From: Escherichia phage vB_Eco_PATM
Length of the DNA: 64,000 bases
Direction: 5' to 3' (one strand)
Sequence record: OX090893
The translations under genes and the position numbers were made by a program. Under the pieces are notes generated by a model. The model searched no databases. It was not told the DNA's origin and saw only the letters and a program-made list of their open reading frames with translations. Numbering within the stretch: position 1 is the stretch's first letter; each line of letters begins with the position of its first letter. Below are positions 6,015 to 23,174 of this stretch, in pieces.

Positions 6015-6590
6015 TTATTTCTCTTCGTCAAGAAGAATTTTTACTATTTGTTTTCTTCGCTTACTTACTGTACTTTCTGGTGAAATTCCGCGCTTCGTTA
6101 GCCAATTTTTATCCTTTTTAGACTGGCATAAAGCTATCGCTTCCTTCTCCGCTTTTGCTTCCCTGAATGTCATATCGTGCTTGTCAGCATAAGCCAAGAT
6201 AGCGTTACACTGCTTACAAACTACACGCAGGTCGTCTTCTGTTACATACAATAGGCGTAAAACAAAACTTGGGATATCTTCATAACAGGTTAATGTACCT
6301 GCTGCATTAATATGGTCTACTTGAAAGTCTTTCATACCTCCTGTATGTCCACACAATTCACATTTACAATTCCAAACCTGTTTCGGTTTGCCTGTTTTCT
6401 TATCTAAAACTACATTGCCATCTTTATCCAATCTATCGGCTTTAAATCGTACAGATTGGATCTTTTTTATCTTATTCGGGTGTCTCACCCATGCCTTCCT
6501 CAAGCAACCCCTTAAGTATGTATAAAAGGCTGCTTGAGTTTTCCAAGGTGTTCCATCTCCCCAAATAACTTTAGGTTCTTTATTTTCCAA
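6015..6590 (-). CDS. Putative HNH-type zinc-finger nuclease-like protein
   Basis: 191 aa; CELCGH...QVDHINAAG...N...CKQCN pattern resembles an HNH zinc-finger core; weak. Confidence 0.4.
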   Translation of the reverse strand: MENKEPKVIWGDGTPWKTQAAFYTYLRGCLRKAWVRHPNKIKKIQSVRFKADRLDKDGNVVLDKKTGKPKQVWNCKCELCGHTGGMKDFQVDHINAAGTLTCYEDIPSFVLRLLYVTEDDLRVVCKQCNAILAYADKHDMTFREAKAEKEAIALCQSKKDKNWLTKRGISPESTVSKRRKQIVKILLDEEK

Positions 6591-6774
6591 TAGTGCTCAC
6601 CTTTTTAGCTACATAATCTCCAGGTGGAATGTTATACTTAAAGAAAAGCATACGGTCTAAACCCGCCTTACACATGTTTTCTGGGATTGTGATTGTATAT
6701 AGGAGTTTATCTCCACGTTTATTGTATATTTTATATACTTCACCCTCTCCGTATTGTTTACCGTGAGAAGCCAT
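6580..6774 (-). CDS. Hypothetical small protein (64 aa)
   Basis: Small ORF in a minus-strand gene string; no motif. Confidence 0.3.
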   Translation of the reverse strand: MASHGKQYGEGEVYKIYNKRGDKLLYTITIPENMCKAGLDRMLFFKYNIPPGDYVAKKVSTIGK

Positions 6775-7159
6775 CTACACTCTCCTTCAATGTTTCAATA
6801 GCATCTGCTGCTTCAATATACTTACCTTTGTACATTGCTTTTAAAGCCTTACGAACAAGATCATCGTCTGTGTATAAATCAATTAGCTGATTAGCCAACT
6901 CAATTTTTACAGGATTTTTTAAGTTAGGGTAGGCTTCATACAACATATTGTAATATTTATCATGCAATTCTTTTTCAATATGAATAACGTGAATCGCTTT
7001 GTTTAGGTTGATCACACGATCACCTTTGTTTCGACAAGCATACTTAGCTAACTTAGTGAAACAAGGAGTTGCACCAATTAGATATGCAAGTTCCAAAGGT
7101 TGCATACGCATACGTTTGTAGTGATCACCATCAATTTGAATATCCAGTGCTGTAGTCAT
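6758..7159 (-). CDS. Hypothetical protein (133 aa)
   Basis: ORF downstream of the bidirectional terminator at 7175-7198. Confidence 0.4.
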   Translation of the reverse strand: MTTALDIQIDGDHYKRMRMQPLELAYLIGATPCFTKLAKYACRNKGDRVINLNKAIHVIHIEKELHDKYYNMLYEAYPNLKNPVKIELANQLIDLYTDDDLVRKALKAMYKGKYIEAADAIETLKESVDGFSR

Positions 7160-7174
7160 AAATCCTCCAAAAAT

Positions 7175-7198
7175 AAAGGGGCTTTCGCCCCTTTTTTA
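7175..7198. terminator. Rho-independent terminator hairpin with U-runs on both sides (bidirectional)
   Basis: GGGGC-TTTC-GCCCC stem-loop flanked by AAAAA upstream and TTTTTT downstream. Confidence 0.6.
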
Positions 7199-8161
7199 TT
7201 AAATTCCAATAACAGTGTTTACACGCTTCTCTTTGCTACGCAAATTAACACGTCCACGAGACAGGCTATTACATGATGTGCATCTTAGCACTTGGAATGT
7301 ACTAACCGCTGTTGTGTAAACCTTACCAGGAACAACTTCAAGGTGCTCTTTACCGCAACGAGGACAACGAAGTTTTTCATCGTCATAGAATGCAGATACG
7401 TTAGGATGTTGTGGAATCCATGCACGAAGTTTGATGTAAAGATCTCTAAGAGAAACAACATCACCATCATTGTATGTTTGCATACGGAAGAAGGCATGTC
7501 TATCTCCTTCACAACATGCTTTCCACAAAGGAAAACCTTCATTATCAAGTTTAAAGTTTTCTGTATCAAAATACAAACACATTTCTTTAAGCGCATTAGA
7601 AGGTAGTGCAAACTGCTTCTTAGCTGCCTTGAGTGTATCAATTACAACATAATGTGATGGTGGCTCCATACCGTGAAAAGCAAAACGTTGGTTAATATAA
7701 GCCTTATCAAACTTAATACCGTTGTGCGCGATCACAATATCTGCATCGTCAAGCAAGTGCCAGAGATCTTGACATAATTCCCAATCATCTGTATGATCTA
7801 TGTCAAACAAAGGGTAATTGCTAAGGTTCTTACCTTCTACTTCCCCTGTTTCTAAATCAGCAGATGAATAGGAAAGCAAGTAACCTCGACGAATAACTTG
7901 TTCAGGTGCAATAAAGGCTTTGAAACGTGAGAAGCTATACACAATCTCCGGTGCTGTCTCTACGTCAATAATTTTAATTACTGGCCCACCTTTATCTTGC
8001 GGAGCACCACGATGTGGTGAATTTACACGAGCTAAGTAATCATTTACTGTGCTCTTCTTAGTAGAACTTCCCAACACCTCTTGTGCAATCTTACGCGAAG
8101 AATAACCTTGTGCTTTCATAGATACAATCAAGGCTTTCTGTTCGTCTGTTAATTTACTCAA
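7199..8161 (-). CDS. DnaQ-like 3'-5' exonuclease with N-terminal HTH
   Basis: 320 aa; N-terminal HTH-like AQGYSSRKIAQEV; Exo I IIDVETAP, Exo II AHNGIKFD, Exo III-like YNDGD; C-terminal CxxC...CxxC. Confidence 0.5.
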   Translation of the reverse strand: MSKLTDEQKALIVSMKAQGYSSRKIAQEVLGSSTKKSTVNDYLARVNSPHRGAPQDKGGPVIKIIDVETAPEIVYSFSRFKAFIAPEQVIRRGYLLSYSSADLETGEVEGKNLSNYPLFDIDHTDDWELCQDLWHLLDDADIVIAHNGIKFDKAYINQRFAFHGMEPPSHYVVIDTLKAAKKQFALPSNALKEMCLYFDTENFKLDNEGFPLWKACCEGDRHAFFRMQTYNDGDVVSLRDLYIKLRAWIPQHPNVSAFYDDEKLRCPRCGKEHLEVVPGKVYTTAVSTFQVLRCTSCNSLSRGRVNLRSKEKRVNTVIGI

Positions 8162-9571: not shown

Positions 9572-10456
9572 TTATTTTTGAATAGTTGACTTAATAAGGT
9601 CTTGCATAATACCACGGATTTCATTAAAGCACAGAAGAACAGATGCTTCAAAAGATCCTTCTTCATCGTTAAAGTATTTAGGGAATTTAATACCACTCAA
9701 CTTAAATTCTTTATCAACAATAAAGTTAACGAAACCGTCATATTCCAGGCCAATGGCAACAACGTGCTTACCATCTTCCATAAGTTCTACTGCACGAGAT
9801 TCATAAAGGGATTCTTTACTCCATACAACCACACCTTCCGAATCTTCAAGTTTAATATAATTACCAAGGGTCAGTCGTTCAGCCTCATGTTCTTCTAAGA
9901 TGGTATCAAAACCTTTAATAATGGCTTCTTCGTGTACACTAAACGGCAGGACTGGGAAAGTACCCAACACCTCACGAAGAAACACAGCAATATCTTCACT
10001 AATTTTCTTAGTACCATTAAGAACGTAGGTAATACTGTTTTCAGTGTCTACAACAACATAGTTATAGAAATCATCTGCCTCTGTTTCTGGGAGCAGAGAA
10101 AACACGATATCAGCCTCAATTGCTTTTTTACTTTCTTTGTCCAAGAAGAATTCTTTAGTAGGGTTTGCAGCAATAAACTCTTGTTCCATCTCTTGAAGTT
10201 TTTCATTAAGAATGCGTTTAACTTTTTTCTTGTTAACTTTCTTAACAGATTGCCCTACTTTAATAACCTCTAAACCAGAGAACACTTTTACATAAGAACC
10301 ATCATCTTCAAAACGAACAAGACCAATGGTATGTGCTTGTTGACCCTGTGCCACAACAAAATCCAGCGGTTTATCTGTTACTGTGTTCAGTGCTGAAATA
10401 GACAGACCATCACCAGAAATCAGGGTTACGCAAGATTTGAAATTTTTAGCAAACAT
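9572..10456 (-). CDS. Hypothetical protein (294 aa)
   Basis: Long acidic ORF in the replication block; no motif. Confidence 0.45.
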   Translation of the reverse strand: MFAKNFKSCVTLISGDGLSISALNTVTDKPLDFVVAQGQQAHTIGLVRFEDDGSYVKVFSGLEVIKVGQSVKKVNKKKVKRILNEKLQEMEQEFIAANPTKEFFLDKESKKAIEADIVFSLLPETEADDFYNYVVVDTENSITYVLNGTKKISEDIAVFLREVLGTFPVLPFSVHEEAIIKGFDTILEEHEAERLTLGNYIKLEDSEGVVVWSKESLYESRAVELMEDGKHVVAIGLEYDGFVNFIVDKEFKLSGIKFPKYFNDEEGSFEASVLLCFNEIRGIMQDLIKSTIQK

Positions 10457-10781: not shown

Positions 10782-11504
10782 TTAAGCAATGATTGCTGCG
10801 ATATTAGGTTTAACAAAGGTAGATGGTTTCATAATTTTACCTTTGTCATCAAAGAATACGTACACCTTTTGAACTTCGTTATATACAGCATGTACCCCAG
10901 TATAAGAACCTTCTGCACGATCTTTGCTTCGCATCTCGATAGCATCGCACTCTTTTTCAAGAGCTTCAATAATATCCTTAGTTTCCCAAATAGCCAGGAG
11001 TTGCTTCTTGGTAGGATACTTGGACTCATTGCTATTCAACACTTCACGCATAACCTTCTTCTCGTTATAAACAGAACGCACCAAAGTATCTCGTGCCATA
11101 CGGGTAAGTGTAAGAGACATTAAGGCAAATTGCAAGTCATTTTCTACCATTTTATCAAATTCAATGATAACATCGTAGATGTTTTCTGCCAGAACATCTC
11201 CTGTCGGCATTTCCAGAGCTTTATCAACACCTTCTTTACCAAAGAACATAAACGCCAGGTAGGATGCTACCACAAAAATATCTGCTGCTGCATCAAGTAA
11301 TTCAACGTGATCATTTTCCTGTGCTGCTGCTTGGAACTCTTTAAGTTCTTCTCGTACAAAAGAAAGTTGAGCTTCAAACATCTCTTGAGTAAATTCTGGA
11401 GTTACTCCACCACGTGCCTTAGCATTCCAAGCAACAATTTGATCGGCAGCTTTGATAAAGAAGCTATTGTCCACTTTTACTTGTTTGAAAAAATTCTCGA
11501 TCAT
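10782..11504 (-). CDS. Hypothetical protein (240 aa), possibly all-alpha NTP pyrophosphohydrolase-like
   Basis: Acidic helical stretch ELLDAAADIFVVASY reminiscent of MazG/dUTPase-like EExxE/D sites; speculative. Confidence 0.35.
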   Translation of the reverse strand: MIENFFKQVKVDNSFFIKAADQIVAWNAKARGGVTPEFTQEMFEAQLSFVREELKEFQAAAQENDHVELLDAAADIFVVASYLAFMFFGKEGVDKALEMPTGDVLAENIYDVIIEFDKMVENDLQFALMSLTLTRMARDTLVRSVYNEKKVMREVLNSNESKYPTKKQLLAIWETKDIIEALEKECDAIEMRSKDRAEGSYTGVHAVYNEVQKVYVFFDDKGKIMKPSTFVKPNIAAIIA

Positions 11505-11701: not shown

Positions 11702-12865
11702 TTACTCTGCTGGTTCCCAAGTACCTGGAATCATCTTACGTACACGTACCCCAACAGGCTTAGTAGGAATACCTTCGTCTGAAAATTCTTCGTACTCTAT
11801 TTCAACAAATTGACCAATAAGTGTCAAAGCATTTTCTTCTTTACGATAGTTAATGGATTCGTCTGAATCCTTACGCATCAGGAATTCGACTACTTTACCA
11901 TTTTCCATCTCTCCTGTCAATACCCCGTCACCATTTTTATCACGCTTTGCACTTACCACTTTAACTTCAAGCGTCTGACGTGGTTTACGTTTAATAACAT
12001 CATAAGAACGTTTATCAAACTCGTAAACACCTTTTGCATTACGATACACCACACCTTCCGCTTTCTCACGTAGAGCTTTTGCATAGAAAGCATCAAACTG
12101 CTCTTGGTTTTCAATGTACTCTGTATGTACTACACAAATAAGTTCATCTAAACCTTTATCTTCAACAACTTCTTTTAGAGCAGCCAAAACTTGAACCCTC
12201 TTCTCAAATGGTACAGATGCCACAGGAACATCATATACATAGTATTTAAGAAGCGGTGTGTTAGCATTATGCTTTTTCCACGCACTATTAATTTGTTGAA
12301 GGCTAAGGACACCCAAACCAGCAAAAACTTCACCGTCAAGAGGATGACCAACTACTTCTTTAATGAAGGTTGGAATTTCTTCCCAGTGAGGTGGAAGTTT
12401 ATATACCTCCCCAGCTTTAGATAAACATTCACCTTGCATGTTAATCATTGAACGTAGACCATTCAATTTATATTGTGCATAACCTGGGAACAAAACACGG
12501 TCAGCATAATCTTTATAATCCTGACATTTCATGGGTGTGGAAGGAACATGGTTTTCAGCTTCCTCTTTTGTTTTATAATACCCATTCTTAAGTTGCTTTG
12601 TCCATTTGGCAAGAGCTTCTATTTCAGCTTGTTCTTCTGCTGTTGTTTCATTGGAGCGACCAATATTTTTAGGTTCTGCCGTATAAGATTTGCTAGTGAT
12701 CTTTCCACCTAATTGACCATGAGCAACAGTTACAACACTACCTTCGGTATAGACTGACCACTGTTTAATTTTACCTGTAGAAGTTTTACCATATAATGTA
12801 GGATTAGTTTGTTTCATCTTTAACCTCCAGTTGCGAAAGAACCCATTTAGCCATTTCAATTTCAC
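11702..12865 (-). CDS. ATP-dependent polynucleotide ligase (probable DNA ligase); start probably at internal Met near 12817
   Basis: Nucleotidyltransferase motifs: I KLNGLR, IV EGVVYR, V DVIKRK, then a C-terminal OB-like region; about 370 aa. Confidence 0.6.
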   Translation of the reverse strand: MKLKWLNGFFRNWRLKMKQTNPTLYGKTSTGKIKQWSVYTEGSVVTVAHGQLGGKITSKSYTAEPKNIGRSNETTAEEQAEIEALAKWTKQLKNGYYKTKEEAENHVPSTPMKCQDYKDYADRVLFPGYAQYKLNGLRSMINMQGECLSKAGEVYKLPPHWEEIPTFIKEVVGHPLDGEVFAGLGVLSLQQINSAWKKHNANTPLLKYYVYDVPVASVPFEKRVQVLAALKEVVEDKGLDELICVVHTEYIENQEQFDAFYAKALREKAEGVVYRNAKGVYEFDKRSYDVIKRKPRQTLEVKVVSAKRDKNGDGVLTGEMENGKVVEFLMRKDSDESINYRKEENALTLIGQFVEIEYEEFSDEGIPTKPVGVRVRKMIPGTWEPAE

Positions 12866-13007
12866 CGTGTAGTCTGCCTAGTTCATAGGCATCATCAATA
12901 TTACCACCAGTGTAATCATCCACCATAAAGTAAGGATCTTCACTACTGTTAGGCGCGTTTGCAATTCTCGTTAGTTCTTCAATAAATGTCATAGTTAACC
13001 TTACCAA
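12804..13007 (-). CDS. Hypothetical small protein (67 aa)
   Basis: ORF; no motif. Confidence 0.3.
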   Translation of the reverse strand: MVRLTMTFIEELTRIANAPNSSEDPYFMVDDYTGGNIDDAYELGRLHGEIEMAKWVLSQLEVKDETN

Positions 13008-13225
13008 TTATACACAAGAGTTTGAATTTCTTCCATCAAATCTTCAAGATCTGTATCAACATATTCAGAAGATGTTGCCATAAAGTATGTAATCATTGTG
13101 AACCCTTCCGAAGAAAGGGCATCAAGGATATCATTAAACATATCTTCCATTTCAGTATTCTCACCAAATGAGAATAACATTTGTTGGTCTTCGCTTACAC
13201 CTTTAACATAGATAGCTGTACTCAT
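13001..13225 (-). CDS. Hypothetical small acidic protein (74 aa)
   Basis: ORF; no motif. Confidence 0.35.
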   Translation of the reverse strand: MSTAIYVKGVSEDQQMLFSFGENTEMEDMFNDILDALSSEGFTMITYFMATSSEYVDTDLEDLMEEIQTLVYNW

Positions 13226-13228
13226 ATA

Positions 13229-13549
13229 TTAATCCTTAAGACGTTCATTTAAATCTGCAATAACATCACCTAAATCTTCACATTCCAGCGTTAACTCTGA
13301 AACTTGTCCACTCAAATAACAAACTTCTTCATTTAGATCTGAAATAATGTTTTCTAATGAATCTACTTGGTCATCATATGAACGTTTTGTTTCTTCAAGT
13401 TCTTCCGTAAGATCATTAATCAAACGGAGCAAAGATAAGATATAACCGTCTCCTGTCTCGTTCCTCCACTCACTTCCGTAGCGATAAATAATAATTTCAC
13501 CATTATCGACTACTGTAAAATACTTACCTTCACCAGAATAAATTTCCAT
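13229..13549 (-). CDS. Hypothetical coiled-coil protein (106 aa)
   Basis: Heptad-like acidic sequence LINDLTEELEETKRSYDDQVDSLENIISDLNEEV. Confidence 0.4.
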   Translation of the reverse strand: MEIYSGEGKYFTVVDNGEIIIYRYGSEWRNETGDGYILSLLRLINDLTEELEETKRSYDDQVDSLENIISDLNEEVCYLSGQVSELTLECEDLGDVIADLNERLKD

Positions 13550-13558
13550 AAACTCTCC

Positions 13559-13963
13559 TTATTGTAGCTTAAGTGAACTGCGAAGACGTTCCTCTTGCTG
13601 ATCACGAATATGTTGTGGAACCTCATGAATTGAATCGTTACCGTGCCTATTCTCCACAACTAAAGAAATAACTTGATAACCAAACTCTTCGGCAAGAGTT
13701 AAATAAGGTTTAAGTTCTTTTTCTGTAGTAGAGGTATTAGAAACAATAATCTTTTCAACACCATACTGCATATATTTTTGTACTTTGACACGACACCATT
13801 GGTGTGCTTTATGGATATTCTCTTGTTTCCACTCATACACACCATCTTCAGTGTAGTGGTATTGATCTGCCTCACAAATAGGCCAATGATTTTCAGAGAT
13901 AATTTCTGCTACTGTAGATTTACCTGCACCTGAAACACCACGTAAAATGATAAGTTGTTTCAT
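13559..13963 (-). CDS. P-loop nucleotide kinase (polynucleotide 5'-kinase-like)
   Basis: 134 aa; Walker A GVSGAGKST at residues 9-17; small kinase fold like the kinase domain of polynucleotide kinases; directly abuts the ligase-like gene. Confidence 0.55.
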   Translation of the reverse strand: MKQLIILRGVSGAGKSTVAEIISENHWPICEADQYHYTEDGVYEWKQENIHKAHQWCRVKVQKYMQYGVEKIIVSNTSTTEKELKPYLTLAEEFGYQVISLVVENRHGNDSIHEVPQHIRDQQEERLRSSLKLQ

Positions 13964-14896
13964 TTAGCCTCCAAAGAAGTTTTCTATTTCTTTACGTCGC
14001 TCTTGTGGATCTAGAGCAGCCCATTGAACCTTCGTAAAGTTATTTCGAAGCCATTCTAGCAAAGTATAATATTCTTCGTCAACAATTTGTTTAGCATTGT
14101 TTGGGTTGTCCCAAATCATATCCCACTTCTTATTGCCACCACGCATAAGGAACTTCTTAGCAAGATAGTATGGTGACTTAATCTTTAAGAGTAAGTTAAA
14201 CGGATAGTTTGTTTCACGAACAACAAAGCCTTCGTGTCTACAATGTTTAGACATTTCAACAACATCTGAAAATTTAATCATCGGATAAACTTCAGGACGT
14301 TTAAATTTTGTAATAGATGCAATCCCATCAAGAACACCTTCAGGTAACATGAAACTTGTCCCGTCAAGATTTTGAATTCTTGCTCCAATTAAGTATGCGC
14401 CTGGTTCTTCTTCGACAATATGTGGATCAGAAGGATCACAGATTTCAAAAAGGAAAGTTGCTTTTGCACTTTCTGTCCACTTAATGAAATACTCTATGTC
14501 ATCACACTCGGAAACAATACGGTTCTTGGCAATAGTTGCAAAGTCTGATTCTAGGCTCCCTGTTGTTGATACAACAAGTTTCCCTTTGTACACACCTACA
14601 GATGCCATAAAACCGTTTACTTTACGGACAGCATCTACAATTTCGTCTGCTGGAAGATCTGTACCATTTTCAAAACGATTAAAGATTTTAGTAAAAGGCC
14701 AAATAACAACATTGTCTTCTGAGTCAACAACCAACCCACGACAATCTAGAAGTCGTTTGTCAACGTTCCACAAATTATCCCAGAATACATTGTTTTTGTA
14801 TTTAAGCACAGCAAGACCAGCATACTCTCCAGATTTAACTTCTTTTTTATGCACTAAACCTTTTACAATCAGGTCATCACAATTGAACTTAGCCAC
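13964..14896 (-). CDS. RNA-ligase-like nucleotidyltransferase (Rnl/Trl1-type)
   Basis: 310 aa; motif I KVNG, motif IV EGFVVR, motif V LLKIK; KxNG is the Trl1/Rnl1-type variant. Confidence 0.55.
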   Translation of the reverse strand: MAKFNCDDLIVKGLVHKKEVKSGEYAGLAVLKYKNNVFWDNLWNVDKRLLDCRGLVVDSEDNVVIWPFTKIFNRFENGTDLPADEIVDAVRKVNGFMASVGVYKGKLVVSTTGSLESDFATIAKNRIVSECDDIEYFIKWTESAKATFLFEICDPSDPHIVEEEPGAYLIGARIQNLDGTSFMLPEGVLDGIASITKFKRPEVYPMIKFSDVVEMSKHCRHEGFVVRETNYPFNLLLKIKSPYYLAKKFLMRGGNKKWDMIWDNPNNAKQIVDEEYYTLLEWLRNNFTKVQWAALDPQERRKEIENFFGG

Positions 14897-14897
14897 C

Positions 14898-15449
14898 TTA
14901 ATCTCCTTTGATTATCTTATGATGGTCTACAACAACAATATCACGCTTATCCATAATAGAGATGATTTCGTCAAAATGCAAGATTTTCCCGTGTGCATCC
15001 CAACCAACATCCAACATCTTCCCATACAAATGGTCAGGGAATGATCCGTGAGAGTGTCCGTGTAGCATGATTGATCCATGCCCTTGTTTATTCCAGGCAG
15101 CCATAGGGTAATGGCTTAAGACGAAAAACAGCTTCTGATATTTCACTTCGTCATAATAAACCACTTCTCCATACTCTGCAAGCACTTTTCTGTGTTTACT
15201 GTAATCATGGTTTCCAACACAGTAAGTAATATCCCCTTGGAGACGGGAAGCAATCTTACGGGTATCTTCTTCAGTCCCGAAACAGAAGTCCCCAAGATGG
15301 TACATCTTTACTCCTGGTGTTGTGGCACATTTATTCCATGCTTCGATCAGTGCTTCTGTCATATGCTCCATATCTTCCCACGGGCGATATTCAGGAGCAA
15401 ACTCTCGGATACGTTTGTGCATAAAATGCAAATCACTTGTAATAAACAT
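14898..15449 (-). CDS. Calcineurin-like metallophosphoesterase
   Basis: 183 aa; DLHFMH, GDFCFG, GNHD, HGHSH metallophosphatase motifs in canonical order. Confidence 0.7.
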   Translation of the reverse strand: MFITSDLHFMHKRIREFAPEYRPWEDMEHMTEALIEAWNKCATTPGVKMYHLGDFCFGTEEDTRKIASRLQGDITYCVGNHDYSKHRKVLAEYGEVVYYDEVKYQKLFFVLSHYPMAAWNKQGHGSIMLHGHSHGSFPDHLYGKMLDVGWDAHGKILHFDEIISIMDKRDIVVVDHHKIIKGD

Positions 15450-15811
15450 TAGTATAATCCCTCGCTGAATAGTTCACTGTTGTGACCATTTCTTTCGTAG
15501 TTAATTTGTTTGGCGTTATCTGCAATGATATAAGCATCTTTTCGACTCCACCAATTATAATACTGATCAATAAACCCTTGATTATCAGGTAAGCAAAACA
15601 GCTTATCGATCAATCCTGCATCTTTTAAAACATTAAGTTGTGCAGATAGTACAGGATTTGCATGCCTAACACAAGGAATAATTAACTCTTCACCATTGTT
15701 GAGAATATACTTATTCGCAGCGCAGACTATAACACGTTGAGCATAGTGATCCTCACCAATCCAGGTAAGAGGTTGGTAACAAATATCATGTTGATTAGTA
15801 GCGCACATCAA
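15449..15811 (-). CDS. Hypothetical protein (120 aa)
   Basis: ORF adjacent to the phosphoesterase; no motif. Confidence 0.4.
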   Translation of the reverse strand: MMCATNQHDICYQPLTWIGEDHYAQRVIVCAANKYILNNGEELIIPCVRHANPVLSAQLNVLKDAGLIDKLFCLPDNQGFIDQYYNWWSRKDAYIIADNAKQINYERNGHNSELFSEGLY

Positions 15812-15966
15812 TTTTCTCCATACTCTTTTAGTCTATCAGCGAAAAAACTGTAATCAGGAAGTAAAAGATCATTACTCGTATCGCTCCAGTTCTCTTCCTC
15901 TCTATAGATAAAATGCCCTTCATCCTCTTCTTGCTCTGACCAAACTGAATAATGCATAATACCTAC

Positions 15967-16341
15967 TTAATAGTTAACACGTTTAATTTCAACACCATAG
16001 GATGAAATAAAATTTTCCTTAGCTAACATATATTTACCAGCAGCAGAAGGATTTGATGTATGAACATAGATAGTTTTAAGAGCATCCCATTCACCCGCGT
16101 ACAACATACATTCTACATCCAAGAACGCATGATAGCCTTCTTGATCTTCCCCAAGATCATTATCGAAGTGTATTTCTGATATATTGTTGAAATTATCTTC
16201 ATCTGAAACAAAAGATGACCAATCCCCAAAAGATTTTAACCAAATGGCATCCTCATAACCATAATCTTTAGGATCTCTTAAATCGTCTAACCAAAGAATT
16301 TTAGCCACTATCAACCTCCTTCCTGTTTCTCTTCTTTCCAA
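15967..16341 (-). CDS. Hypothetical protein (124 aa)
   Basis: ORF; N-terminal ILWLDDLRDP; no assignable motif. Confidence 0.4.
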   Translation of the reverse strand: MERRETGRRLIVAKILWLDDLRDPKDYGYEDAIWLKSFGDWSSFVSDEDNFNNISEIHFDNDLGEDQEGYHAFLDVECMLYAGEWDALKTIYVHTSNPSAAGKYMLAKENFISSYGVEIKRVNY

Positions 16342-16502
16342 GTTTTACCTTTATCTACCAATTTCTTAGAAACAGCAAATCTTTCCCCATTGATATAAAA
16401 CAAATAAAGAATAAAGGATTTTCCTATAGTTACAGTATCTACTACTTCTACACGCTTCACACCTTGCATGTATTTGGCTTTACCTGAATAAATAAGAAAC
16501 AT
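16311..16502 (-). CDS. Hypothetical small protein (63 aa)
   Basis: ORF in early block. Confidence 0.3.
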   Translation of the reverse strand: MFLIYSGKAKYMQGVKRVEVVDTVTIGKSFILYLFYINGERFAVSKKLVDKGKTWKEEKQEGG

Positions 16503-16780
16503 TACTTATTCCTTTTGTTGTTGATCACATCTAAAGCTGTGTAAGGCTTGTTTGTACCGCTGTATTCAAGAATAATTGGTACATATTCACAGACCAACTC
16601 AAAAGTACCATACACAGAATCTGCAACTGAAATAAGCATTTCAGTGCCTTCGTCGTTCTTAATTAATGAAAATCTTGCCCCTGGTTTATTGAGCACTTCA
16701 TATTTCTTACCTGCTGTCAGCAAACCTGAATACCATTCATTTTGCACAACAGACAAACACTTCAGATATGTTTTTCTCAT
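16502..16780 (-). CDS. Hypothetical protein (92 aa)
   Basis: ORF in early block. Confidence 0.4.
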   Translation of the reverse strand: MRKTYLKCLSVVQNEWYSGLLTAGKKYEVLNKPGARFSLIKNDEGTEMLISVADSVYGTFELVCEYVPIILEYSGTNKPYTALDVINNKRNK

Positions 16781-17118
16781 TTCTTTTTGCTCCTTCTTTT
16801 AGGCTTCTCGTATAAACCTAACACAGCCGATTCTTTTGCACAAATAGGAACTGACTTCATTCCTCGTTTTTTAGCTTCTGGTAGATTCAAAACCCACCAG
16901 CCAAACCAGTACAATTCATCCTCTGTAAAAGGATCTGCCATAGGATCTGCATCACGTTCTTCAAATTTAGCAAGAGCTTCTTCTATCTTTTCTATTGGAG
17001 TATCAAAGACAAAAGCCTCTGTGTCAAATTTTTGTTTCTTAGGAGCGGCTTTTGCCGCCCCATCTTTAGATGCGTGCTTTGTTACGGATCGCTTCTTCGG
17101 TGTTTTCGCCATCAACAA
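16777..17118 (-). CDS. Hypothetical basic protein (113 aa, Lys-rich termini)
   Basis: KKRSVTKHASKDGAAKAAPKKQK N-terminus and KPKRRSKKK C-terminus suggest nucleic-acid binding. Confidence 0.4.
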   Translation of the reverse strand: MLMAKTPKKRSVTKHASKDGAAKAAPKKQKFDTEAFVFDTPIEKIEEALAKFEERDADPMADPFTEDELYWFGWWVLNLPEAKKRGMKSVPICAKESAVLGLYEKPKRRSKKK

Positions 17119-17305
17119 CCTCCATGCGGTGTAAGAAATCTTGCTGGAATCGCCAATACTGTTGACCAGTCCTTACATCTTCGTAGATCACAACAGGATC
17201 AAATACTTTAGCTACACCTGCTGGTTTAGGGAAGCCAACTACACGATATAAACCACCTTTGCTAATACAAGAATATGTTACATCAGTTAAAATTTCTTTT
17301 TTCAT
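17066..17305 (-). CDS. Hypothetical small protein (79 aa)
   Basis: ORF in early block. Confidence 0.35.
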   Translation of the reverse strand: MKKEILTDVTYSCISKGGLYRVVGFPKPAGVAKVFDPVVIYEDVRTGQQYWRFQQDFLHRMEVVDGENTEEAIRNKARI

Positions 17306-17499
17306 TTCTTAATAAACTCCAATACAGGTACGTGATCAGCAGTTAAAGTTACACAATTGTAACTTACCTTTTCAACTTCAGAGAATGCTTCAACCCATAG
17401 CAAGAAATTCTCTTTAGCCTCTTCATAATTCAATGTTGACTTAACAACATGGAACTCACCAAGGATTACTCTATAGATTGTTTGCATAGTTTGATTCAT
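17302..17499 (-). CDS. Hypothetical small protein (65 aa)
   Basis: ORF in early block. Confidence 0.35.
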   Translation of the reverse strand: MNQTMQTIYRVILGEFHVVKSTLNYEEAKENFLLWVEAFSEVEKVSYNCVTLTADHVPVLEFIKK

Positions 17500-17565
17500 T
17501 TATTTTTCCTTTGTTTAAAATGTGTTAAACAATCGCAAATGCTTGTGACGCACTTTGTGATTCCA

Positions 17566-17934
17566 CTAATTAATGTCAGCACTATGATTGTTGAGAGTAT
17601 AGGATACTCCATCGCCCAAGTCAACATGAATCTCAACTCCTAACTGTCTTTCTAATGGTAAACGTTTTGAGAATTGATAATTACAAAGTTTACAGTCTAA
17701 GTCAAGCAACTCATGTTTGCTTAAACCTGCGACGATAACTTTGCTCCCCACTGTCCACTCAATACCTTCAAAGTTATCTCTTCTTTTCAAAATGTCAAGT
17801 AAGAAGATGATTTGTTGCCATTCCGTAGACAAGTCTTCTTCATAGAATGCAGAACAAAAAGTTTTATCATCGTAGAAAGCATACATTATGCCTCCATCTA
17901 TTGTTTCACTTCTAACGTAACGTGTGACCCTCAT
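17566..17934 (-). CDS. Hypothetical protein (122 aa), first gene of the leftward block
   Basis: ORF starting next to the divergent intergenic region. Confidence 0.45.
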   Translation of the reverse strand: MRVTRYVRSETIDGGIMYAFYDDKTFCSAFYEEDLSTEWQQIIFLLDILKRRDNFEGIEWTVGSKVIVAGLSKHELLDLDCKLCNYQFSKRLPLERQLGVEIHVDLGDGVSYTLNNHSADIN

Positions 17935-18065
17935 TATTCCCTCCTGTATGGCTCTGTAACGAGCTAATGGCCTCTAAGATATGCAATCACCTTACCTCAC
18001 AGTAAAACTCGTTACAATCGTTTTTAGGAGGTTCAGGTTGTACTTAAAAATAATCTAAAAAGGTG

Positions 18066-18094
18066 TTGACAAACGCAAAAAAGTATGCTACCCT
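18066..18094 (+). promoter_or_regulatory. Sigma70-like promoter (TTGACA-17-TACCCT, weak -10)
   Basis: TTGACA at 18066-18071 within the AT-rich divergent region. Confidence 0.35.
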
Positions 18095-18276
18095 AACCCC
18101 CGAAAAACGCCGAGCGCAGCGAGGTGGGTGTTATCTAATCTTGTGATACATGATCTAACAGACAACTGAGTAGTCTACACATAGCACTATGTTATGTCTC
18201 TAATACTAACATACATACTCTATACTAACAATAGATTCTTTATTAATTTTATTATTAATTAAATAATAAATATCTA

Positions 18277-18305
18277 TTGACTTTAGATTTATCTGTATGT
18301 AGAGT
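18277..18305 (+). promoter_or_regulatory. Sigma70-like promoter (TTGACT-17-TAGAGT)
   Basis: Hexamers with 17 nt spacer about 40 nt upstream of the 18345 start; RBS AAGGAG precedes the ATG. Confidence 0.55.
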
Positions 18306-18344
18306 AGAGAACATAAAGTCCTAACTCAACTAAGGAGATAAACA

Positions 18345-19238
18345 ATGAAAGTTAGTATTCTACATGGTGTTGGCTGTTATGTTACTGATGTAGACGTTAA
18401 AGTCTTTACATTCTCTGGTGGAGAACAACATGTTCAACTAGACACGAATCTATCAGGTTTCAATCATGCTACAGACAGAATCTTACTCTCTTTAGAAGTA
18501 AGATCTGCTAAAGACTTGATGACTTTGGTTATGACTAAGAATGCATTGGACAATATGCTATATCATAAACCATATTGTGTTGATTTGCTCATGTTGTATG
18601 TGCCATATGCACGACAAGACAGAGTGTGTGAACCTGGGGAAGCATTCGGAGTTAAAGCATTTGCTTCTATAATTAATTCATTAAATTTCTCACGTGTTAT
18701 CGTTGCTGATCCACATAGTGATGTTACTCCAGCAGTGTTTGACAGACTCTGTGTAATACCTCAAGAAGAGATTGCTTACGAAACTTTAAAGTGGAAGTTA
18801 CGTATGGAGAATTTTGCTCTTGTTAGTCCTGATGGTGGTGCTCTTAAGAAAATATTTAAATTATCTAAGAAAATGTCTTTAGATGTGTTCTGTGCAGAGA
18901 AGGTTAGAGATACTGCAACAGGTGCTATTGTTCGTACAGACATTTCTGTACAGGATTTCAATAAGCGTAACCTGATGATCGTAGATGATATCTGTGATGG
19001 TGGTAGAACTTTTATTGAGTTGGCTAAAGTGCTACGTGCTCGTAACGCAGGTAAGATTGAGTTATATGTTACACACGGTATCTTTTCTAAAGGTCTTAAA
19101 GAGTTAAGTGAGCACTTTGACTGCATTCATTCTCTTAATGTGTGGGAAGATAACATCCAAGAAGATTCCGGTGTTCTTGTTAAGAATCAGTCAGATTTGC
19201 AACAACAAATTGTATCTCCATACGTGTGGAATTTTTAA
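18345..19238 (+). CDS. Ribose-phosphate pyrophosphokinase (PRPP synthetase)-like enzyme; candidate ADP-ribose pyrophosphate synthetase of an NAD+ reconstitution pathway
   Basis: 297 aa; PRPP-binding loop LMIVDDICDGGRT; directly followed by a NAMPT-like gene. Confidence 0.65.
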   Translation: MKVSILHGVGCYVTDVDVKVFTFSGGEQHVQLDTNLSGFNHATDRILLSLEVRSAKDLMTLVMTKNALDNMLYHKPYCVDLLMLYVPYARQDRVCEPGEAFGVKAFASIINSLNFSRVIVADPHSDVTPAVFDRLCVIPQEEIAYETLKWKLRMENFALVSPDGGALKKIFKLSKKMSLDVFCAEKVRDTATGAIVRTDISVQDFNKRNLMIVDDICDGGRTFIELAKVLRARNAGKIELYVTHGIFSKGLKELSEHFDCIHSLNVWEDNIQEDSGVLVKNQSDLQQQIVSPYVWNF

Positions 19239-19248: not shown

Positions 19249-19277
19249 TTGACAATAGGGAGTATGCTTAGTAAGAT
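19249..19277 (+). promoter_or_regulatory. Sigma70-like promoter (TTGACA-17-TAAGAT)
   Basis: Consensus -35 with 17 nt spacer upstream of the NAMPT-like gene. Confidence 0.5.
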
Positions 19278-19309
19278 ACTCCCACACTAACAAACAAGGA
19301 GACATAACT

Positions 19310-21043
19310 ATGAATATTTTTGCACCTTTTGCTACTGATTGGTATAAACCTGGTCACAAGCAGATGTACAACCAAAATACAAAACTCATTTTCTCTAATT
19401 TAACTCCTCGTAATGATAAAAACTTTGCACACTATGCAGATCGTGAAGCACGTGGTGTGATTGTTTTAGGTATTCGTCGAGCAGTCACTGATGCTCTTGT
19501 AACTATGTGGGACAGCTTCTTTAAAATGTCTCGTAGTGCAGCAGTAAATAAATTTTATCGTATGTCTAAAAATGCATTAGGTGCTTCTGCTCCTTCTGCT
19601 GAATGTTGGGGAGAATTGCACGATTTAGGTTATCTTCCGCTAGAAGTTCGATCTCTGCCAGAAGGTGTTTTGTGTCCTATTGGTGTTCCTGTGTTTACTG
19701 TGCATAATACTTTAGAAAAATTCTTTTGGTTAACTAACTATGTGGAAACACTCTTGTCAGATGAAACTTGGAAGACAATGACTAATGCCACAGCAGCTTT
19801 TCAGTATAAGCGTATCGCTATGGCGTATGCGATGGCAACGTGTGATAACATTGATCACGTTAATTTCCAGTGTCATGACTTTAGCCTACGTGGTTTAAGC
19901 AATATCGAAGATGGTTATAAGAGTGGTATCGCTCATTTGGCATCTTTCACAGGTACAGATAATATTCTGGCTATTGAAACTGTGCATGATTACTATGGTA
20001 TTGATTATGATCAGTTTGTTGCAGGTTCTATTCCGGCAACAGAACATTCAGTAGCAACGACTAACATTGGAGCTATTGTTGAAGATCTAAAGGAACATTT
20101 TCCACGTCTTAAAGCTGATGTAGATTGGCTTCGTTATGTAGCAGAAAAAGAGTTTCTTCGTCGTTATATTGAAGAAATTGTTCCAGAAGGTTTTTGTTCA
20201 TATGTAGCAGATTCTTATGATTACTGGACTGTATTGACTAACATTCTGGTAGAGTTGAAAGATTCCATCATGTCACGAAATGGTCGTCTTGTTATTCGTC
20301 CAGATTCAGGAGATCCGGTTAAAGTTGTTGCAGGATACAATGTTGAATCTTTTGATAACTATGAAGATCTTTTAAATAATGGTATTGCTACAGCCACTGA
20401 AGTAGTACATTTGGCTGATGTTAATAAGTATTACAATGTTCTTCAGGATTGCAGTGTTGCTGATTGTATTGATGAAACTTATGAGATTCCTTATTGTGAA
20501 GCAGTAGGTTCTATTCAAATCCTTTGGGAAGTGTTTGGTGGTACTATCAACCGAAAAGGCTACAAGGTTCTTGATCAGCACATCGGTATGATTTATGGTG
20601 ATTCTATTACTGTTGAACGAGAACACGAGATCTTACGCCGACTGAAGAAGAAAGGTTTTGCAGCTTCCAATATTGTATTTGGTGTTGGTAGTTATACTTA
20701 TCAGTTCAATACACGAGATACTTTTGGTTTTGCTGTTAAAGCAACAGGTAGTATCATCGGTGAACACGAAATTTTGGTAAGTAAAGAGCCTAAAACTGAT
20801 CCTGGTAAACGCTCTGCAAAAGGTTTTATTAAGGTTGTTAAGGATACAAATGGTAAACTTTCTCTTGTGGATAATCTTTCTTTTAAAGATATCCAAGATG
20901 AAGACAATGAGTTAAAAGTTATCTTCAGGGATGGTACGGTTATTACACCACAAGTAGAAGGACGTGATGAAACATTTACTGATATCCGCAACCGTGTTGA
21001 TGTAGAGGTTCTTCGTACTATGGGAACCATCCAGGTTGACTAA
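19310..21043 (+). CDS. nadV: Nicotinamide phosphoribosyltransferase (NAMPT/NadV)-like enzyme; candidate nicotinamide ADP-ribose transferase
   Basis: 577 aa; length and gene pairing with the PRPP-synthetase-like gene fit phage NadV-family enzymes; no single diagnostic motif verified by eye. Confidence 0.6.
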   Translation: MNIFAPFATDWYKPGHKQMYNQNTKLIFSNLTPRNDKNFAHYADREARGVIVLGIRRAVTDALVTMWDSFFKMSRSAAVNKFYRMSKNALGASAPSAECWGELHDLGYLPLEVRSLPEGVLCPIGVPVFTVHNTLEKFFWLTNYVETLLSDETWKTMTNATAAFQYKRIAMAYAMATCDNIDHVNFQCHDFSLRGLSNIEDGYKSGIAHLASFTGTDNILAIETVHDYYGIDYDQFVAGSIPATEHSVATTNIGAIVEDLKEHFPRLKADVDWLRYVAEKEFLRRYIEEIVPEGFCSYVADSYDYWTVLTNILVELKDSIMSRNGRLVIRPDSGDPVKVVAGYNVESFDNYEDLLNNGIATATEVVHLADVNKYYNVLQDCSVADCIDETYEIPYCEAVGSIQILWEVFGGTINRKGYKVLDQHIGMIYGDSITVEREHEILRRLKKKGFAASNIVFGVGSYTYQFNTRDTFGFAVKATGSIIGEHEILVSKEPKTDPGKRSAKGFIKVVKDTNGKLSLVDNLSFKDIQDEDNELKVIFRDGTVITPQVEGRDETFTDIRNRVDVEVLRTMGTIQVD

Positions 21044-21789: not shown

Positions 21790-21865
21790 GGTTCCATAGC
21801 TCACTGACGAGAGCGCACACCTCATAAGTGTCGAGGGCAGGGATTGTAACCCTGGGGAACCACCA
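21790..21865 (+). tRNA. tRNA, anticodon CAT (Met/Ile2-type), atypical T-loop
   Basis: Hand-folded cloverleaf: acceptor GGTTCCA/GGGAACC, D-stem GCTC/GAGC, anticodon loop CTCATAA, encoded CCA; T-loop ATTGTAA is non-canonical. Confidence 0.55.
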
Positions 21866-21896
21866 TTTAAAAGGAGGTGCTATGCATCTCCTATAT

Positions 21897-21982
21897 GCAA
21901 GTGTGGTGGAATTGGTGATACACATTGTGCTTAAAACGCAACGCTTAAATGCTTGAGGGTTCGAATCCCTCCACTTGCACCA
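21897..21982 (+). tRNA. tRNA-Leu (anticodon TAA)
   Basis: Acceptor GCAAGTG/CACTTGC, anticodon loop CTTAAAA, long variable arm, T-arm GAGGGTTCGAATCCCTC, encoded ACCA. Confidence 0.75.
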
Positions 21983-21984
21983 AC

Positions 21985-22090
21985 GCCTAGTAGGGTATTT
22001 GGTAATTCCGAGGCCATCAAAGCCTGAAAAATATGTTAGACCACTTTGTCTAACTAAATACGAAATATGGTTCGATTCCATAACTAGGCT
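21985..22090 (+). tRNA. Atypical tRNA-like element (106 nt; perfect acceptor and T-arm but about 30 nt extra internal sequence)
   Basis: Acceptor GCCTAGT/ACTAGGC and T-arm TATGG-TTCGATT-CCATA are canonical, but the interior has a 7-bp hairpin GTTAGAC-N6-GTCTAAC and no clean anticodon arm; no encoded CCA. Confidence 0.35.
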
Positions 22091-22124
22091 TCAATTTAAA
22101 TAATAATTTTTTAGTAAAAATATC

Positions 22125-22153
22125 TTGACATTTACTTAGTTTTTTGTTATAGT
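22125..22153 (+). promoter_or_regulatory. Sigma70-like promoter (TTGACA-17-TATAGT)
   Basis: Near-consensus hexamers 11 nt upstream of the next tRNA-like gene. Confidence 0.55.
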
Positions 22154-22164
22154 TACTGTGAAAA

Positions 22165-22246
22165 CGGGGTGTATCTCACCTGACTTCTAATCAGGCGTTA
22201 ACCGAGTAATTGGAGTATGCAGGTTCGAATCCTGTCACCCCGACCA
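22165..22246 (+). tRNA. Atypical tRNA-like gene, anticodon loop CTTCTAA (TCT, Arg-like); D-arm not foldable by eye
   Basis: Acceptor CGGGGTG/CACCCCG, perfect anticodon arm CCTGA-CTTCTAA-TCAGG, T-arm GCAGG-TTCGAAT-CCTGT, encoded CCA; only 7 nt between acceptor and anticodon stem, 23 nt variable region. Confidence 0.4.
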
Positions 22247-22310
22247 AAAAAGTTTTAAAAACTACTTGACAAGCAAGATAGTTTTATGTTAGATTTAAAG
22301 TATGATAACG

Positions 22311-22400
22311 GGAAGGTAGGGCGCAGCGGTGCGCAACCAGGTTTGAACCCTGGCCCATTGTAGCGATACGGTGATGGTTCGACTCCATTATCTTCCTCCA
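22311..22400 (+). tRNA. tRNA-Ser (anticodon TGA)
   Basis: Acceptor GGAAGGT/ATCTTCC, anticodon arm CCAGG-TTTGAAC-CCTGG, long variable arm, encoded CCA. Confidence 0.75.
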
Positions 22401-22418
22401 AATTCGCTTAGGAGCTTT

Positions 22419-22571
22419 ATGAATTATAAAACTATTGGACAGGTTGTTACCGGAGTTAAGATTGTAAATAATAAAGTTGTTTATGAGTATTCTAATCTTC
22501 AACAATCTGAAGATGGTAAGAATATTCGTATGGTAAAATCAGAACAAAAAGATTCCGGTTGTTTTGAATAA
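22419..22571 (+). CDS. Small hypothetical protein (50 aa) between tRNA genes
   Basis: ATG at 22419 preceded by RBS AGGAG; the longer ORF-track version starts inside the tRNA. Confidence 0.3.
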   Translation: MNYKTIGQVVTGVKIVNNKVVYEYSNLQQSEDGKNIRMVKSEQKDSGCFE

Positions 22572-22579
22572 TTAAGAAC

Positions 22580-22665
22580 GGTAGATTGGTGAAATGGTAG
22601 CCACAACAGTTTGCTAAACTGTCGTCGGAAACGGCGTGTAGGTTCAAGTCCTACATCTACCGCCA
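22580..22665 (+). tRNA. tRNA-Ser (anticodon GCT)
   Basis: Acceptor GGTAGAT/ATCTACC, anticodon arm ACAGT-TTGCTAA-ACTGT, long variable arm, T-arm GTAGG-TTCAAGT-CCTAC, encoded CCA. Confidence 0.75.
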
Positions 22666-22715
22666 AGTTATCTTTAATGTAGCTTGTTGCTCTTAGTTGC
22701 TTGGTGTAACTTTTT

Positions 22716-22790
22716 GGAAGGATGGCTGCAACCATCTTACTTTAATAGAGTAAACTTTCGGCAGATGGCCCCCACCATCTTACCGATACC
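22716..22790 (+). repeat. Two related hairpins sharing CCATCTTAC (GGATGG-CTGCAA-CCATCTTAC and AGATGG-CCCCCA-CCATCTTAC)
   Basis: Seen directly in the inter-tRNA spacer; function unknown. Confidence 0.4.
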
Positions 22791-22835
22791 TCATAGTTAG
22801 TGGTGCGAACACTGGCTATTTTAAAGATAATTTAT

Positions 22836-22911
22836 ACATCGTTAGCTTAGTTGGTAGAGCAAGGGGCTTTTAACTCCAAGGTCGAAGGTTCGAATCCTTC
22901 ACGATGTACCA
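22836..22911 (+). tRNA. tRNA-Lys (anticodon TTT)
   Basis: Acceptor ACATCGT/ACGATGT, D-loop AGTTGGTA, anticodon loop CTTTTAA, T-arm GAAGG-TTCGAAT-CCTTC, encoded CCA. Confidence 0.7.
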
Positions 22912-22916
22912 AACAC

Positions 22917-23003
22917 GTAGGTATCGCATAGCGGCAATTGCTGGAGACTGTAAATCTCCTGCCCTTCGGGGCTTCGTTGGTTCGAGTCCAACTACCTGCA
23001 CCA
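22917..23003 (+). tRNA. tRNA-Tyr (anticodon GTA)
   Basis: Acceptor GTAGGTA/TACCTGC, anticodon arm GGAGA-CTGTAAA-TCTCC, long variable arm, encoded CCA. Confidence 0.7.
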
Positions 23004-23010
23004 AATTAAA

Positions 23011-23095
23011 GATGGATTGGCCTAGTGGTTGGGCGACGGACTGTTAATCCGTGAACGAAAGTTCTAGCAAGGTTCAAATCCTTGATCCATCGCCA
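23011..23095 (+). tRNA. tRNA with anticodon GTT (Asn) and an unusually long hairpin variable arm
   Basis: Acceptor GATGGAT/ATCCATC, anticodon arm ACGGA-CTGTTAA-TCCGT, variable hairpin GAAC-GAAA-GTTC, T-arm CAAGG-TTCAAAT-CCTTG, encoded CCA. Confidence 0.5.
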
Positions 23096-23099
23096 AATA

Positions 23100-23167: not shown

Positions 23168-23174
23168 ATATTTT

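Follow-up and report, generated by a model that had tools for sequence, protein, structure and literature searches.

Three adjacent minus-strand genes at positions 13559-15449 of a 64,000-nucleotide stretch of Escherichia phage vB_Eco_PATM (sequence record OX090893; the whole stretch is hereafter called the window) are predicted to encode a metallophosphoesterase, an ATP-dependent RNA ligase of the Rnl1/Trl1 type, and a P-loop kinase with the polynucleotide kinase (Pnk) fold. These genes probably constitute a single co-translated module for healing and sealing RNA ends and, by analogy, a split functional equivalent of both the T4 Pnkp/Rnl1 pair and the bacterial Pnkp; a probability of about 0.75 is assigned to this reading. 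It is carried by the family and fold of each protein, the conservation of catalytic residues, the operonic coupling of the genes, their co-conservation in permuted order, and natural fusions between the kinase and the ligase. RNA repair by phages is known experimentally almost only from T4 Pnkp and Rnl1. The trio would represent a widespread alternative, present in at least 62 distinct viral loci, in which 3' healing would fall to an uncharacterised clade of metallophosphoesterases and 5' healing to a Pnk-fold kinase without an Arg residue thought to be essential.

Arrangement and coupling of the three genes

The window comes from a phi92-like phage of the genus Justusliebigvirus, and by megablast positions 13000-16500 share 98.5% identity with phage outra and 97.8% with phi92. 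(It should be noted that the matches to this interval include five records labelled Campylobacter phage or carrying Campylobacter jejuni as the host; mislabelled hosts or contamination are possible.) A first-pass annotation, made from the sequence alone, had described three adjacent, tightly packed minus-strand genes as an RNA-repair-like set, and the open reading frames (ORFs) have just this layout. In the order of transcription, the phosphoesterase (14898-15449, 183 residues; proposed 3'-end healing as a 2',3'-cyclic phosphodiesterase / 3'-phosphatase), the ligase (13964-14896, 310 residues, GTG start; the proposed sealing enzyme), and the kinase (13559-13963, 134 residues; a proposed 5'-OH polynucleotide kinase) follow one another on the minus strand with gaps of 0-1 nucleotide, and every motif quoted earlier for the three proteins is present in their translations.

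The junctions are correspondingly tight. Between the ligase and the kinase (TAAATG) the start codon directly follows the stop; one nucleotide separates stop from start between the phosphoesterase and the ligase (TAA-g-GTG); and the stop of the next ORF upstream, p839, overlaps the phosphoesterase start (TAATG). Shine-Dalgarno-like sequences, GGAGG and AAGGAG, lie close upstream. Because the junctions overlap or span only 0-1 nucleotide and are accompanied by these sequences, the trio is almost certainly co-transcribed and translationally coupled. A scan of 12800-18400 for consensus promoters and terminators gave counts equal to those of shuffled controls (20 vs 19.3; 3 vs 2.7) and does not inform the operon boundaries. 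The family assignments of the three proteins lie far above chance (RNA_lig_T4_1, 3.6e-14; AAA_33, 1.8e-10; PHROG families, 1e-55 to 1e-67). NCBIfam provided no usable assignment for the kinase, the ligase, the phosphoesterase, p839, or the nearby cyclic-phosphate-processing receiver-like (cREC) protein.

The RNA ligase

The ligase carries the motifs KVNG (residues 92-95), EGFVVR (222-227), and LLKIK (236-240). Its match to PF09511 (RNA_lig_T4_1) extends over profile positions 2-227 of 227 and scores 53.6 bits (gathering score, 28.3), and the protein also falls within phrog_562 (4e-67). A single-sequence phmmer search of the PDB returned no match for the ligase and a family profile was needed; the profile built from 28 homologs matched only T4 Rnl1 (2c5u, 9do4), at an E value of 5e-10. 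The residues of nucleotidyltransferase motifs I, III, IV, and V (K92, G95, E151, E222-G223, K238/K240) are invariant in the 28 homologs and align to T4 Rnl1 K99/G102, E159, E227-G228, and K240/K242. Outside these motifs, the residues that align to T4 Rnl1 R54, K75, and F77 are R53 and K70, both invariant, and F72, whose conservation is 90% or higher. Mutagenesis in the Shuman laboratory reportedly found T4 Rnl1 residues R54, K75, F77, K99, D101, G102, K119, E159, E227, G228, K240, and K242 to be essential, and ten of these twelve are identical in the phage ligase. One of the two differences is D101, which corresponds to an invariant Asn (N94), so that motif I reads KxNG rather than the KEDG of T4 Rnl1; the other, K119, is considered below. 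KxNG is the form of motif I seen in Trl1-type tRNA ligases (PMC10946426).

An AlphaFold2 model of the ligase has a mean predicted local distance difference test (pLDDT) score of 91.3. When this model is compared with known structures using Foldseek, T4 Rnl1 and the ligase domain of fungal Trl1 come out on top (E values of 1e-11 to 1e-13, template modelling (TM) score of ~0.63), followed at lower ranks by Rnl3, Rnl2, and Rnl5 and then by DNA ligases at 7e-5 or worse. The protein groups with T4 Rnl1 and fungal Trl1, not with DNA ligases or capping enzymes, as its provisional description as an RNA-type enzyme had implied. By profile and by confident model, then, it is predicted to be an Rnl1/Trl1-type RNA ligase. 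Downstream of motif V lies an invariant basic cluster, K248, R252, and K257.

The kinase

The kinase has a Walker A motif, GVSGAGKST, at residues 9-17, whose Lys (K15) is present in 138 of the 139 unique sequences of its clade that were used for residue counts. Pfam recognises it only as a generic AAA_33 protein. The family profile is more specific: its best matches in the PDB are 5'-OH polynucleotide kinases, namely Pnkp1 (4xrp), the Mucorales kinases 9d8a and 9drz, T4 Pnk, and the kinase of Clostridium thermocellum Pnkp (CthPnk). There is also a weak match to nicotinamide riboside kinase, which is confined to the P-loop. With the AlphaFold2 model (pLDDT 91.1), the top 18 Foldseek matches are all T4 Pnk or CthPnk (TM 0.73-0.77), followed by the tRNA kinase PSTK; UMP-CMP kinase first appears at rank 48, with a TM score of 0.50. 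This ranking, together with the fusions described below, argues against a deoxynucleoside monophosphate kinase.

A DxxR motif is common to the Pnks that function in RNA repair, and neither its Asp nor its Arg is dispensable; the Asp acts as the general base, and the Arg contacts the first phosphodiester and positions the Asp (PMC3902929). In the phage clade, the general-base Asp is present as D33 (136 of 139 sequences), which aligns to T4 D35 and corresponds to CthPnk D38. The Thr that anchors the phosphodiester (T4 T86, CthPnk T80) is present as T77 within SNTS, a segment that aligns to T4 SDTN, in 129 of 139 sequences. The Arg is considered below with the observations that speak against a repair function. 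Context suggests that the phage enzyme acts on polynucleotides.

Part of this context is covalent. An exhaustive profile search yielded 608 representative clusters of the kinase clade at E<=1e-30. Among them are fusions to the same ligase subfamily in which the kinase precedes the ligase (P0443) or follows it (P0449), with E values of 1e-92 and 1e-98 for the ligase hidden Markov model, and a further protein (P0382) has a partial ligase in an extension that is unannotated in Pfam. The clade is also fused to CNPase, a 2H cyclic phosphodiesterase (P0474), and to an HD domain (P0390, confirmed by Pfam; the HD-like motifs of P0463 and P0501 were recognised by eye only). The long fusion proteins all carry the signature R-GxxxxGK[ST]...A-D-x-[YFW]-[FHWM]. 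In addition, the N terminus of the phrog_8238 profile (737 positions) matches the kinase and its C terminus matches the ligase. The 150 best-ranked representatives of the kinase clade include no fusion to a phosphoesterase, and for kinase and phosphoesterase alike the 120 highest-ranking homologs stand alone.

Two further features of the kinase clade may be mentioned. The domain also occurs in eukaryote-type proteins of ~2300 residues with CUE, DUF1771, and Smr domains (listed with P0413 and P0428). Residues H54 (126/139), C57 (132/139), and H113 (136/139) are near-invariant and H107 is found in 85/139; they lie on the helix formed by residues 47-66 and on the lid loop, and they could form a metal site.

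The metallophosphoesterase

The phosphoesterase contains DLHFMH, GDFCFG, GNHD, and HGHSH. All five signature motifs of binuclear metallophosphoesterases (DxH, GD, GNH[DE], H, GHxH) are invariant in 28 homologs with identities down to 36%, the residues being D6/H8, G53-D54, G79-N80-H81, H113, and G131-H132-x-H134. The protein belongs to phrog_547 (4.8e-55). As a single sequence it matches PF12850 with an E value of 3.3e-4 and 21.1 bits, which is below the cut-off of 27; many of its homologs have precomputed matches to PF12850 or PF00149. Metallophosphoesterases proven to heal RNA 2',3'-cyclic phosphates are the phosphatase of CthPnkp and lambda phosphatase (PMC2190708, PMC3675462). From the chemistry of the superfamily and from gene context, the phage enzyme would likewise act in healing RNA 3' ends.

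Linkage of the genes across viral loci

Three sets of viral loci were assembled, anchored on the ligase (70 loci), the kinase (77), and the phosphoesterase (80); for the ligase set, neighbours were counted within 7 kb. Around the ligase, whose homologs in this set range in identity from 98% to ~30%, the phosphoesterase is present in 67/70 loci and the kinase in 64/70. All three genes are found in 62/70, arranged as phosphoesterase-ligase-kinase in 33 and as kinase-ligase-phosphoesterase in 27. Since the linkage persists through rearrangement of gene order, the three genes appear to be functionally coupled, and the idea of an RNA-repair-like set gains support from co-conservation that reaches down to ~30% ligase identity.

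The phosphoesterase is nearby in 51 of the 77 kinase-anchored loci and an Rnl1-type ligase in 33, and the phosphoesterase-anchored set has the kinase nearby in 36 of 80 loci and an Rnl1-type ligase in 43. A different family of RNA ligases (PF09414 with a PHA02142 OB domain, of the Rnl2/Rnl5 type) lies near the kinase in 15/77 loci. The kinase-phosphoesterase pair stands beside a PF09414 ligase in loci L163, L169-L172, L181, L182, L195, L199, and others, and also at L134:4425-5513. Because the pair also occurs with this second ligase type, the kinase and phosphoesterase appear to behave as a healing unit that can be placed next to ligases of either type.

Proposed mechanism and relation to known systems

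In the proposed pathway, the metallophosphoesterase would take off the 3'-terminal phosphate of a broken RNA and the P-loop kinase would phosphorylate the 5'-OH. The Rnl1-type ligase, adenylylated on Lys92, would then pass AMP to the 5'-phosphate and seal the break. The cREC protein encoded upstream may assist in opening the cyclic phosphate in the phi92 and rV5 lineages. The substrates given here for the kinase and phosphoesterase, like the order of these steps, are proposals; from the T4 paradigm we infer, reasonably in our view, that the biological target would be host tRNA cleaved by an anticodon nuclease.

T4 Pnkp and Rnl1, which counter the anticodon nuclease PrrC, form a phage-encoded pathway for healing and sealing in which the 5' kinase has the Pnk fold and the ligase belongs to the Rnl1 family; among known structures, T4 Rnl1 and T4 Pnk best match the phage ligase and kinase models. 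The two systems differ at the 3' end: in T4 an HAD (DxDxT) phosphatase shares one polypeptide with the kinase (PMC3592404), whereas the phage module has a separate binuclear metallophosphoesterase. The first-pass annotation had contrasted a three-ORF set containing a metallophosphoesterase with the single-polypeptide phage Pnk, and this contrast is correct. Further differences from T4 are a kinase without the DxxR Arg and a ligase in which KxNG replaces KxDG, Thr takes the place of K119, and the C-terminal domain is shorter.

The closest analogue in chemistry, nearer than T4, is one that the earlier annotation did not name: the bacterial Pnkp of the Pnkp-Hen1 system of Clostridium thermocellum. 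CthPnkp likewise combines a P-loop polynucleotide kinase, a binuclear metallophosphoesterase with 2',3'-cyclic phosphodiesterase and phosphatase activity, and an ATP-dependent ligase (PMC3675462, PMC2190708), and its kinase is among the top fold matches of the phage kinase. However, CthPnkp is one polypeptide rather than three; its phosphatase belongs to the lambda-phosphatase clade, to which the phage profile has no match at E<=1; and its ligase domain, which depends on Hen1, is of another type than Rnl1. (No Hen1 was seen at the phage locus, where no search was aimed at it.)

Fungal and plant Trl1 and the split tRNA ligases of Mucorales and Branchiostoma share with the phage ligase an Rnl1-like fold and a KxNG motif I. 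The split enzymes resemble it further in that the ligase stands alone and the healing enzymes are encoded separately (PMC10946426), and the ligase-kinase fusions of the phage kinase clade mirror the domain order of Trl1. Trl1, on the other hand, uses a 2H cyclic phosphodiesterase, needs a 2'-phosphate, and relies on Tpt1; no 2H domain and no Tpt1/KptA homologue was found at the phage locus.

A related neighbourhood has been described before, and this independent prediction speaks for the repair reading. Iyer et al. (2022; PMC9503650, section 3.7.3) reported a sirtuin-centred RNA-repair neighbourhood in Escherichia phage V5 and Proteus phage Mydo that contains a T4-like tRNA ligase, cREC, a 'nucleotide kinase', MazG, and a calcineurin-like phosphoesterase, and all of these families are present in the window. 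The rV5-like loci of the ligase-anchored set (L004-L008, L013) are direct relatives of the phage locus. The sirtuin is where the window departs from that description: tblastn of an rV5-type SIR2 protein (PF02146, 1.3e-23) against the whole window gave no match. Sirtuin and MazG genes occur in 11/70 and 13/70 ligase-anchored loci, respectively. In addition, the phosphoesterase, 'occasional' in the earlier account, is near-universal across the ligase subfamily. This refines the published picture, in that the ligase, phosphoesterase, and kinase form a conserved core to which sirtuin, cREC, and MazG have been added in particular lineages only.

Among GenBank relatives, the trio is annotated in the BASEL phage EmilieFrey as polynucleotide kinase, RNA ligase, and putative phosphoesterase, and phage Paula carries the label 'RNA ligase /RNA repair'. 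Because of these annotations and of the rV5-type neighbourhood already described, the novelty of the module is low; what is new here is the recognition of the trio as a conserved core and of a kinase clade without the DxxR Arg. Since annotation and comparative genomics had already flagged the module, its value lies in biochemical characterisation rather than discovery. Because culturable BASEL phages carry it, EmilieFrey (Bas61) among them, it can be tested directly against defence systems that cleave tRNA.

Evidence against a repair module and alternative explanations

Several observations weigh against the assignment of the trio to RNA healing and sealing. In the kinase, the position of the DxxR Arg (T4 R38, CthPnk R41), residue 36, is never Arg in the 139 sequences; it is F in 88, H in 16, L in 12, W in 7, M in 7, and Q in 3. 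Because this Arg is a defining feature of the family, the kinase is not classed with the canonical T4/Cth-type Pnks. A candidate substitute is R8, which directly precedes the P-loop and is found in 133 of 139 sequences. In the 28-homolog alignment of the ligase, T4 Rnl1 K119 is replaced by an invariant Thr, T112, and the all-helical C-terminal region spans in the model only ~66 residues (242-307), as compared with ~120 in the tRNA-specificity domain of T4 Rnl1 (~255-374). N94 and T112 distinguish the protein from T4 Rnl1 alone and do not set it apart from the wider Rnl1/Trl1 family.

The phosphoesterase adds further points of this kind. The sole solved relative of the family is aq_1665 from Aquifex (1xm7; 1.7e-21 with the family profile), an uncharacterised protein, and at E<=1 the matches of this profile in the PDB are aq_1665, GpdQ, YfcE, and 3ck2, and neither lambda phosphatase nor the CthPnkp phosphatase. 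Since these two proven healers are undetected by the profile, a 3'-healing role is proposed from superfamily chemistry and gene context. The phosphoesterase clade is uncharacterised and not exclusive to ligase loci: in 36 of the 80 loci anchored on it, neither ligase nor kinase is nearby. In one closely related locus (L072; IMGVR_UViG_3300014004_000001, 6121-7893), a phosphoesterase 90% identical to that of the window is retained together with cREC and p839, and the ligase and kinase are replaced by a 123-residue ORF with an HEAIH motif and no Pfam match. In this locus, the genes for sealing and for 5' healing have thus been lost or exchanged in nature. On the strength of L072 and the stand-alone loci, the phosphoesterase may have a second role that is independent of the ligase. 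Finally, the literature searched yielded no experimental work on the module and no biochemical or genetic data on the kinase, ligase, or phosphoesterase.

The stand-alone phosphoesterases and L072 also fit an explanation that we consider unlikely, in which the phosphoesterase, cREC, and p839 primarily hydrolyse small phosphorylated or cyclic ADP-ribose derivatives or nucleotides in an NAD+-centred conflict with the host, and the ligase and kinase act separately on RNA. Within 7 kb of the Rnl1-type ligase there is a NAMPT-like gene in 38/70 loci and a Prs-like gene in 28/70, an arrangement that resembles the phage NAD+ reconstitution pathway NARP1, which dedicated phage phosphatases do feed; Iyer et al. 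allow processing of ADPr>P by phosphoesterases of this kind (PMC9503650). However, the published NARP1-associated phosphatase is a Macro-domain protein, a member of another family. Moreover, the phosphoesterase is found in nearly all of the ligase loci, usually adjacent to the ligase and in two gene orders, and it also pairs with the kinase beside the second family of RNA ligases. Without it, most such phages would have no 3'-healing activity to serve their ATP-dependent ligase.

A second alternative retains RNA repair but follows the eukaryote-like, Trl1-type route through a 2'-phosphate. Here, cREC would generate 3'-OH/2'-PO4 ends, the kinase would phosphorylate the 5' end, the ligase would require the 2'-PO4, and the metallophosphoesterase, or in rV5-like phages the linked sirtuin, would then clear the 2'-phosphate from the junction. 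The invariant Asn of the KxNG motif, as in Trl1 (PMC10946426), is consistent with this route, as are the equal scores of Trl1 ligase domains and T4 Rnl1 in the fold search, the ligase-kinase order of the P0449-type fusion, and the adjacency of cREC to the trio. The basic cluster of K248, R252, and K257 lies roughly where two Arg residues of Trl1 bind the 2'-PO4 and may be their counterpart, and the sirtuin added in rV5-like relatives was proposed by Iyer et al. (PMC9503650) to be an analogue of KptA/Tpt1. Against this route, which we hold to be quite improbable, stands the distribution of its parts: cREC occurs in only 10/70 ligase loci, sirtuin is similarly rare, and the window has no sirtuin. 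Because these two genes are so infrequent, the metallophosphoesterase is the only candidate cyclic phosphodiesterase for most members of the ligase family, and the known metallophosphoesterase healers yield 2'-OH/3'-OH ends (PMC2190708), not the 2'-phosphate that such a ligase would need.

The Trl1-type route may also be joined to the substitution proposed for the kinase. In this combined version, to which we likewise give little credence, a KxNG ligase that requires the 2'-PO4 would work with a Pnk-fold kinase in which R8 replaces the DxxR Arg; the 2'-PO4 would come from cREC or from the metallophosphoesterase acting as a cyclic phosphodiesterase, and would later be removed by the metallophosphoesterase (or by sirtuin in rV5-like phages).

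It is very unlikely that the trio has nothing to do with repair and is instead a nucleotide or nucleoside kinase, a nucleotidase, and a ligase of another role (such as the tail-fibre attachment function of T4 gp63) brought together in an early block of nucleotide metabolism: the same-strand block shared with genes of that kind, the database labels (often 'ATPase' for the kinase, and 'RNA ligase and tail fiber protein attachment catalyst' in PHROGs for the ligase family), the missing acceptor-binding Arg, and the P-loop-only match to nicotinamide riboside kinase are outweighed by the covalent fusion of the kinase clade to the ligase subfamily and to a 2H cyclic phosphodiesterase, by linkage retained despite permuted order and changing surrounding genes, and by the placing of polynucleotide kinases and a tRNA kinase above UMP-CMP kinase in the fold search.

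Accessory and neighbouring genes

Immediately upstream of the trio, and translationally coupled to the phosphoesterase, is p839 (phrog_839; 15449-15811, minus strand, 120 residues). It has no match in Pfam, NCBIfam, or the PDB, and it occurs in only 3/70 ligase loci, being confined to phi92-like loci and found next to the phosphoesterase in L072. The cREC protein (15967-16341, minus strand; PF20274, 3.9e-13) has conserved Rec-like acidic residues D19, D20, D60, and D62 together with K103, and proteins of this family are predicted to open cyclic phosphates (PMC7824862, PMC9503650). The loci that contain it are phi92-like and rV5-like. Both p839 and cREC are lineage-specific accessories.

The trio belongs to a long block of genes on one strand, among whose other members are those for MazG, DNA ligase, thymidylate synthase, thymidine kinase, and ribonucleotide reductase. 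Downstream in this block, on the minus strand, are a MazG-like pyrophosphohydrolase (10782-11504; PRA-PH, 3.2e-7; phrog_671) and an RdgC-like protein (9572-10456). The separate ligase at 11702-12865, which the first-pass annotation had taken for a DNA-sealing enzyme, is indeed an ATP-dependent DNA ligase (PF01068, 3e-11; phrog_114, 7e-75).

On the plus strand, a Prs-like gene (18345-19238) stands beside a NAPRTase/NAMPT-like gene (19274-20935; PF04095, 3.7e-38), and the pair looks like the two-gene NARP1 pathway (Adps and Namat). The possibility that the phosphoesterase is the 'phage phosphatase' reported in 2026 to rescue NARP1 was considered and rejected, since that enzyme is the Macro-domain protein mentioned above. 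The trio had also been placed next to a large tRNA island. The island exists, as an array of 16 tRNA genes (21790-25106), and it lies ~6.3 kb away on the opposite, plus strand; because about ten small ORFs and the two NAD+-salvage genes intervene, it is 'near' the trio and not 'next to' it. The array would serve as a replacement strategy alongside the repair module. Given the proximity of the module to both the array and the NARP1-like pair, these phages seem to stack three counter-measures against defences that target translation or NAD+. Three of the tRNA genes have a CAT anticodon, and Lys(UUU), Tyr, Asn, and Gln species, of the kind that anticodon nucleases typically attack, are likewise encoded in the array.

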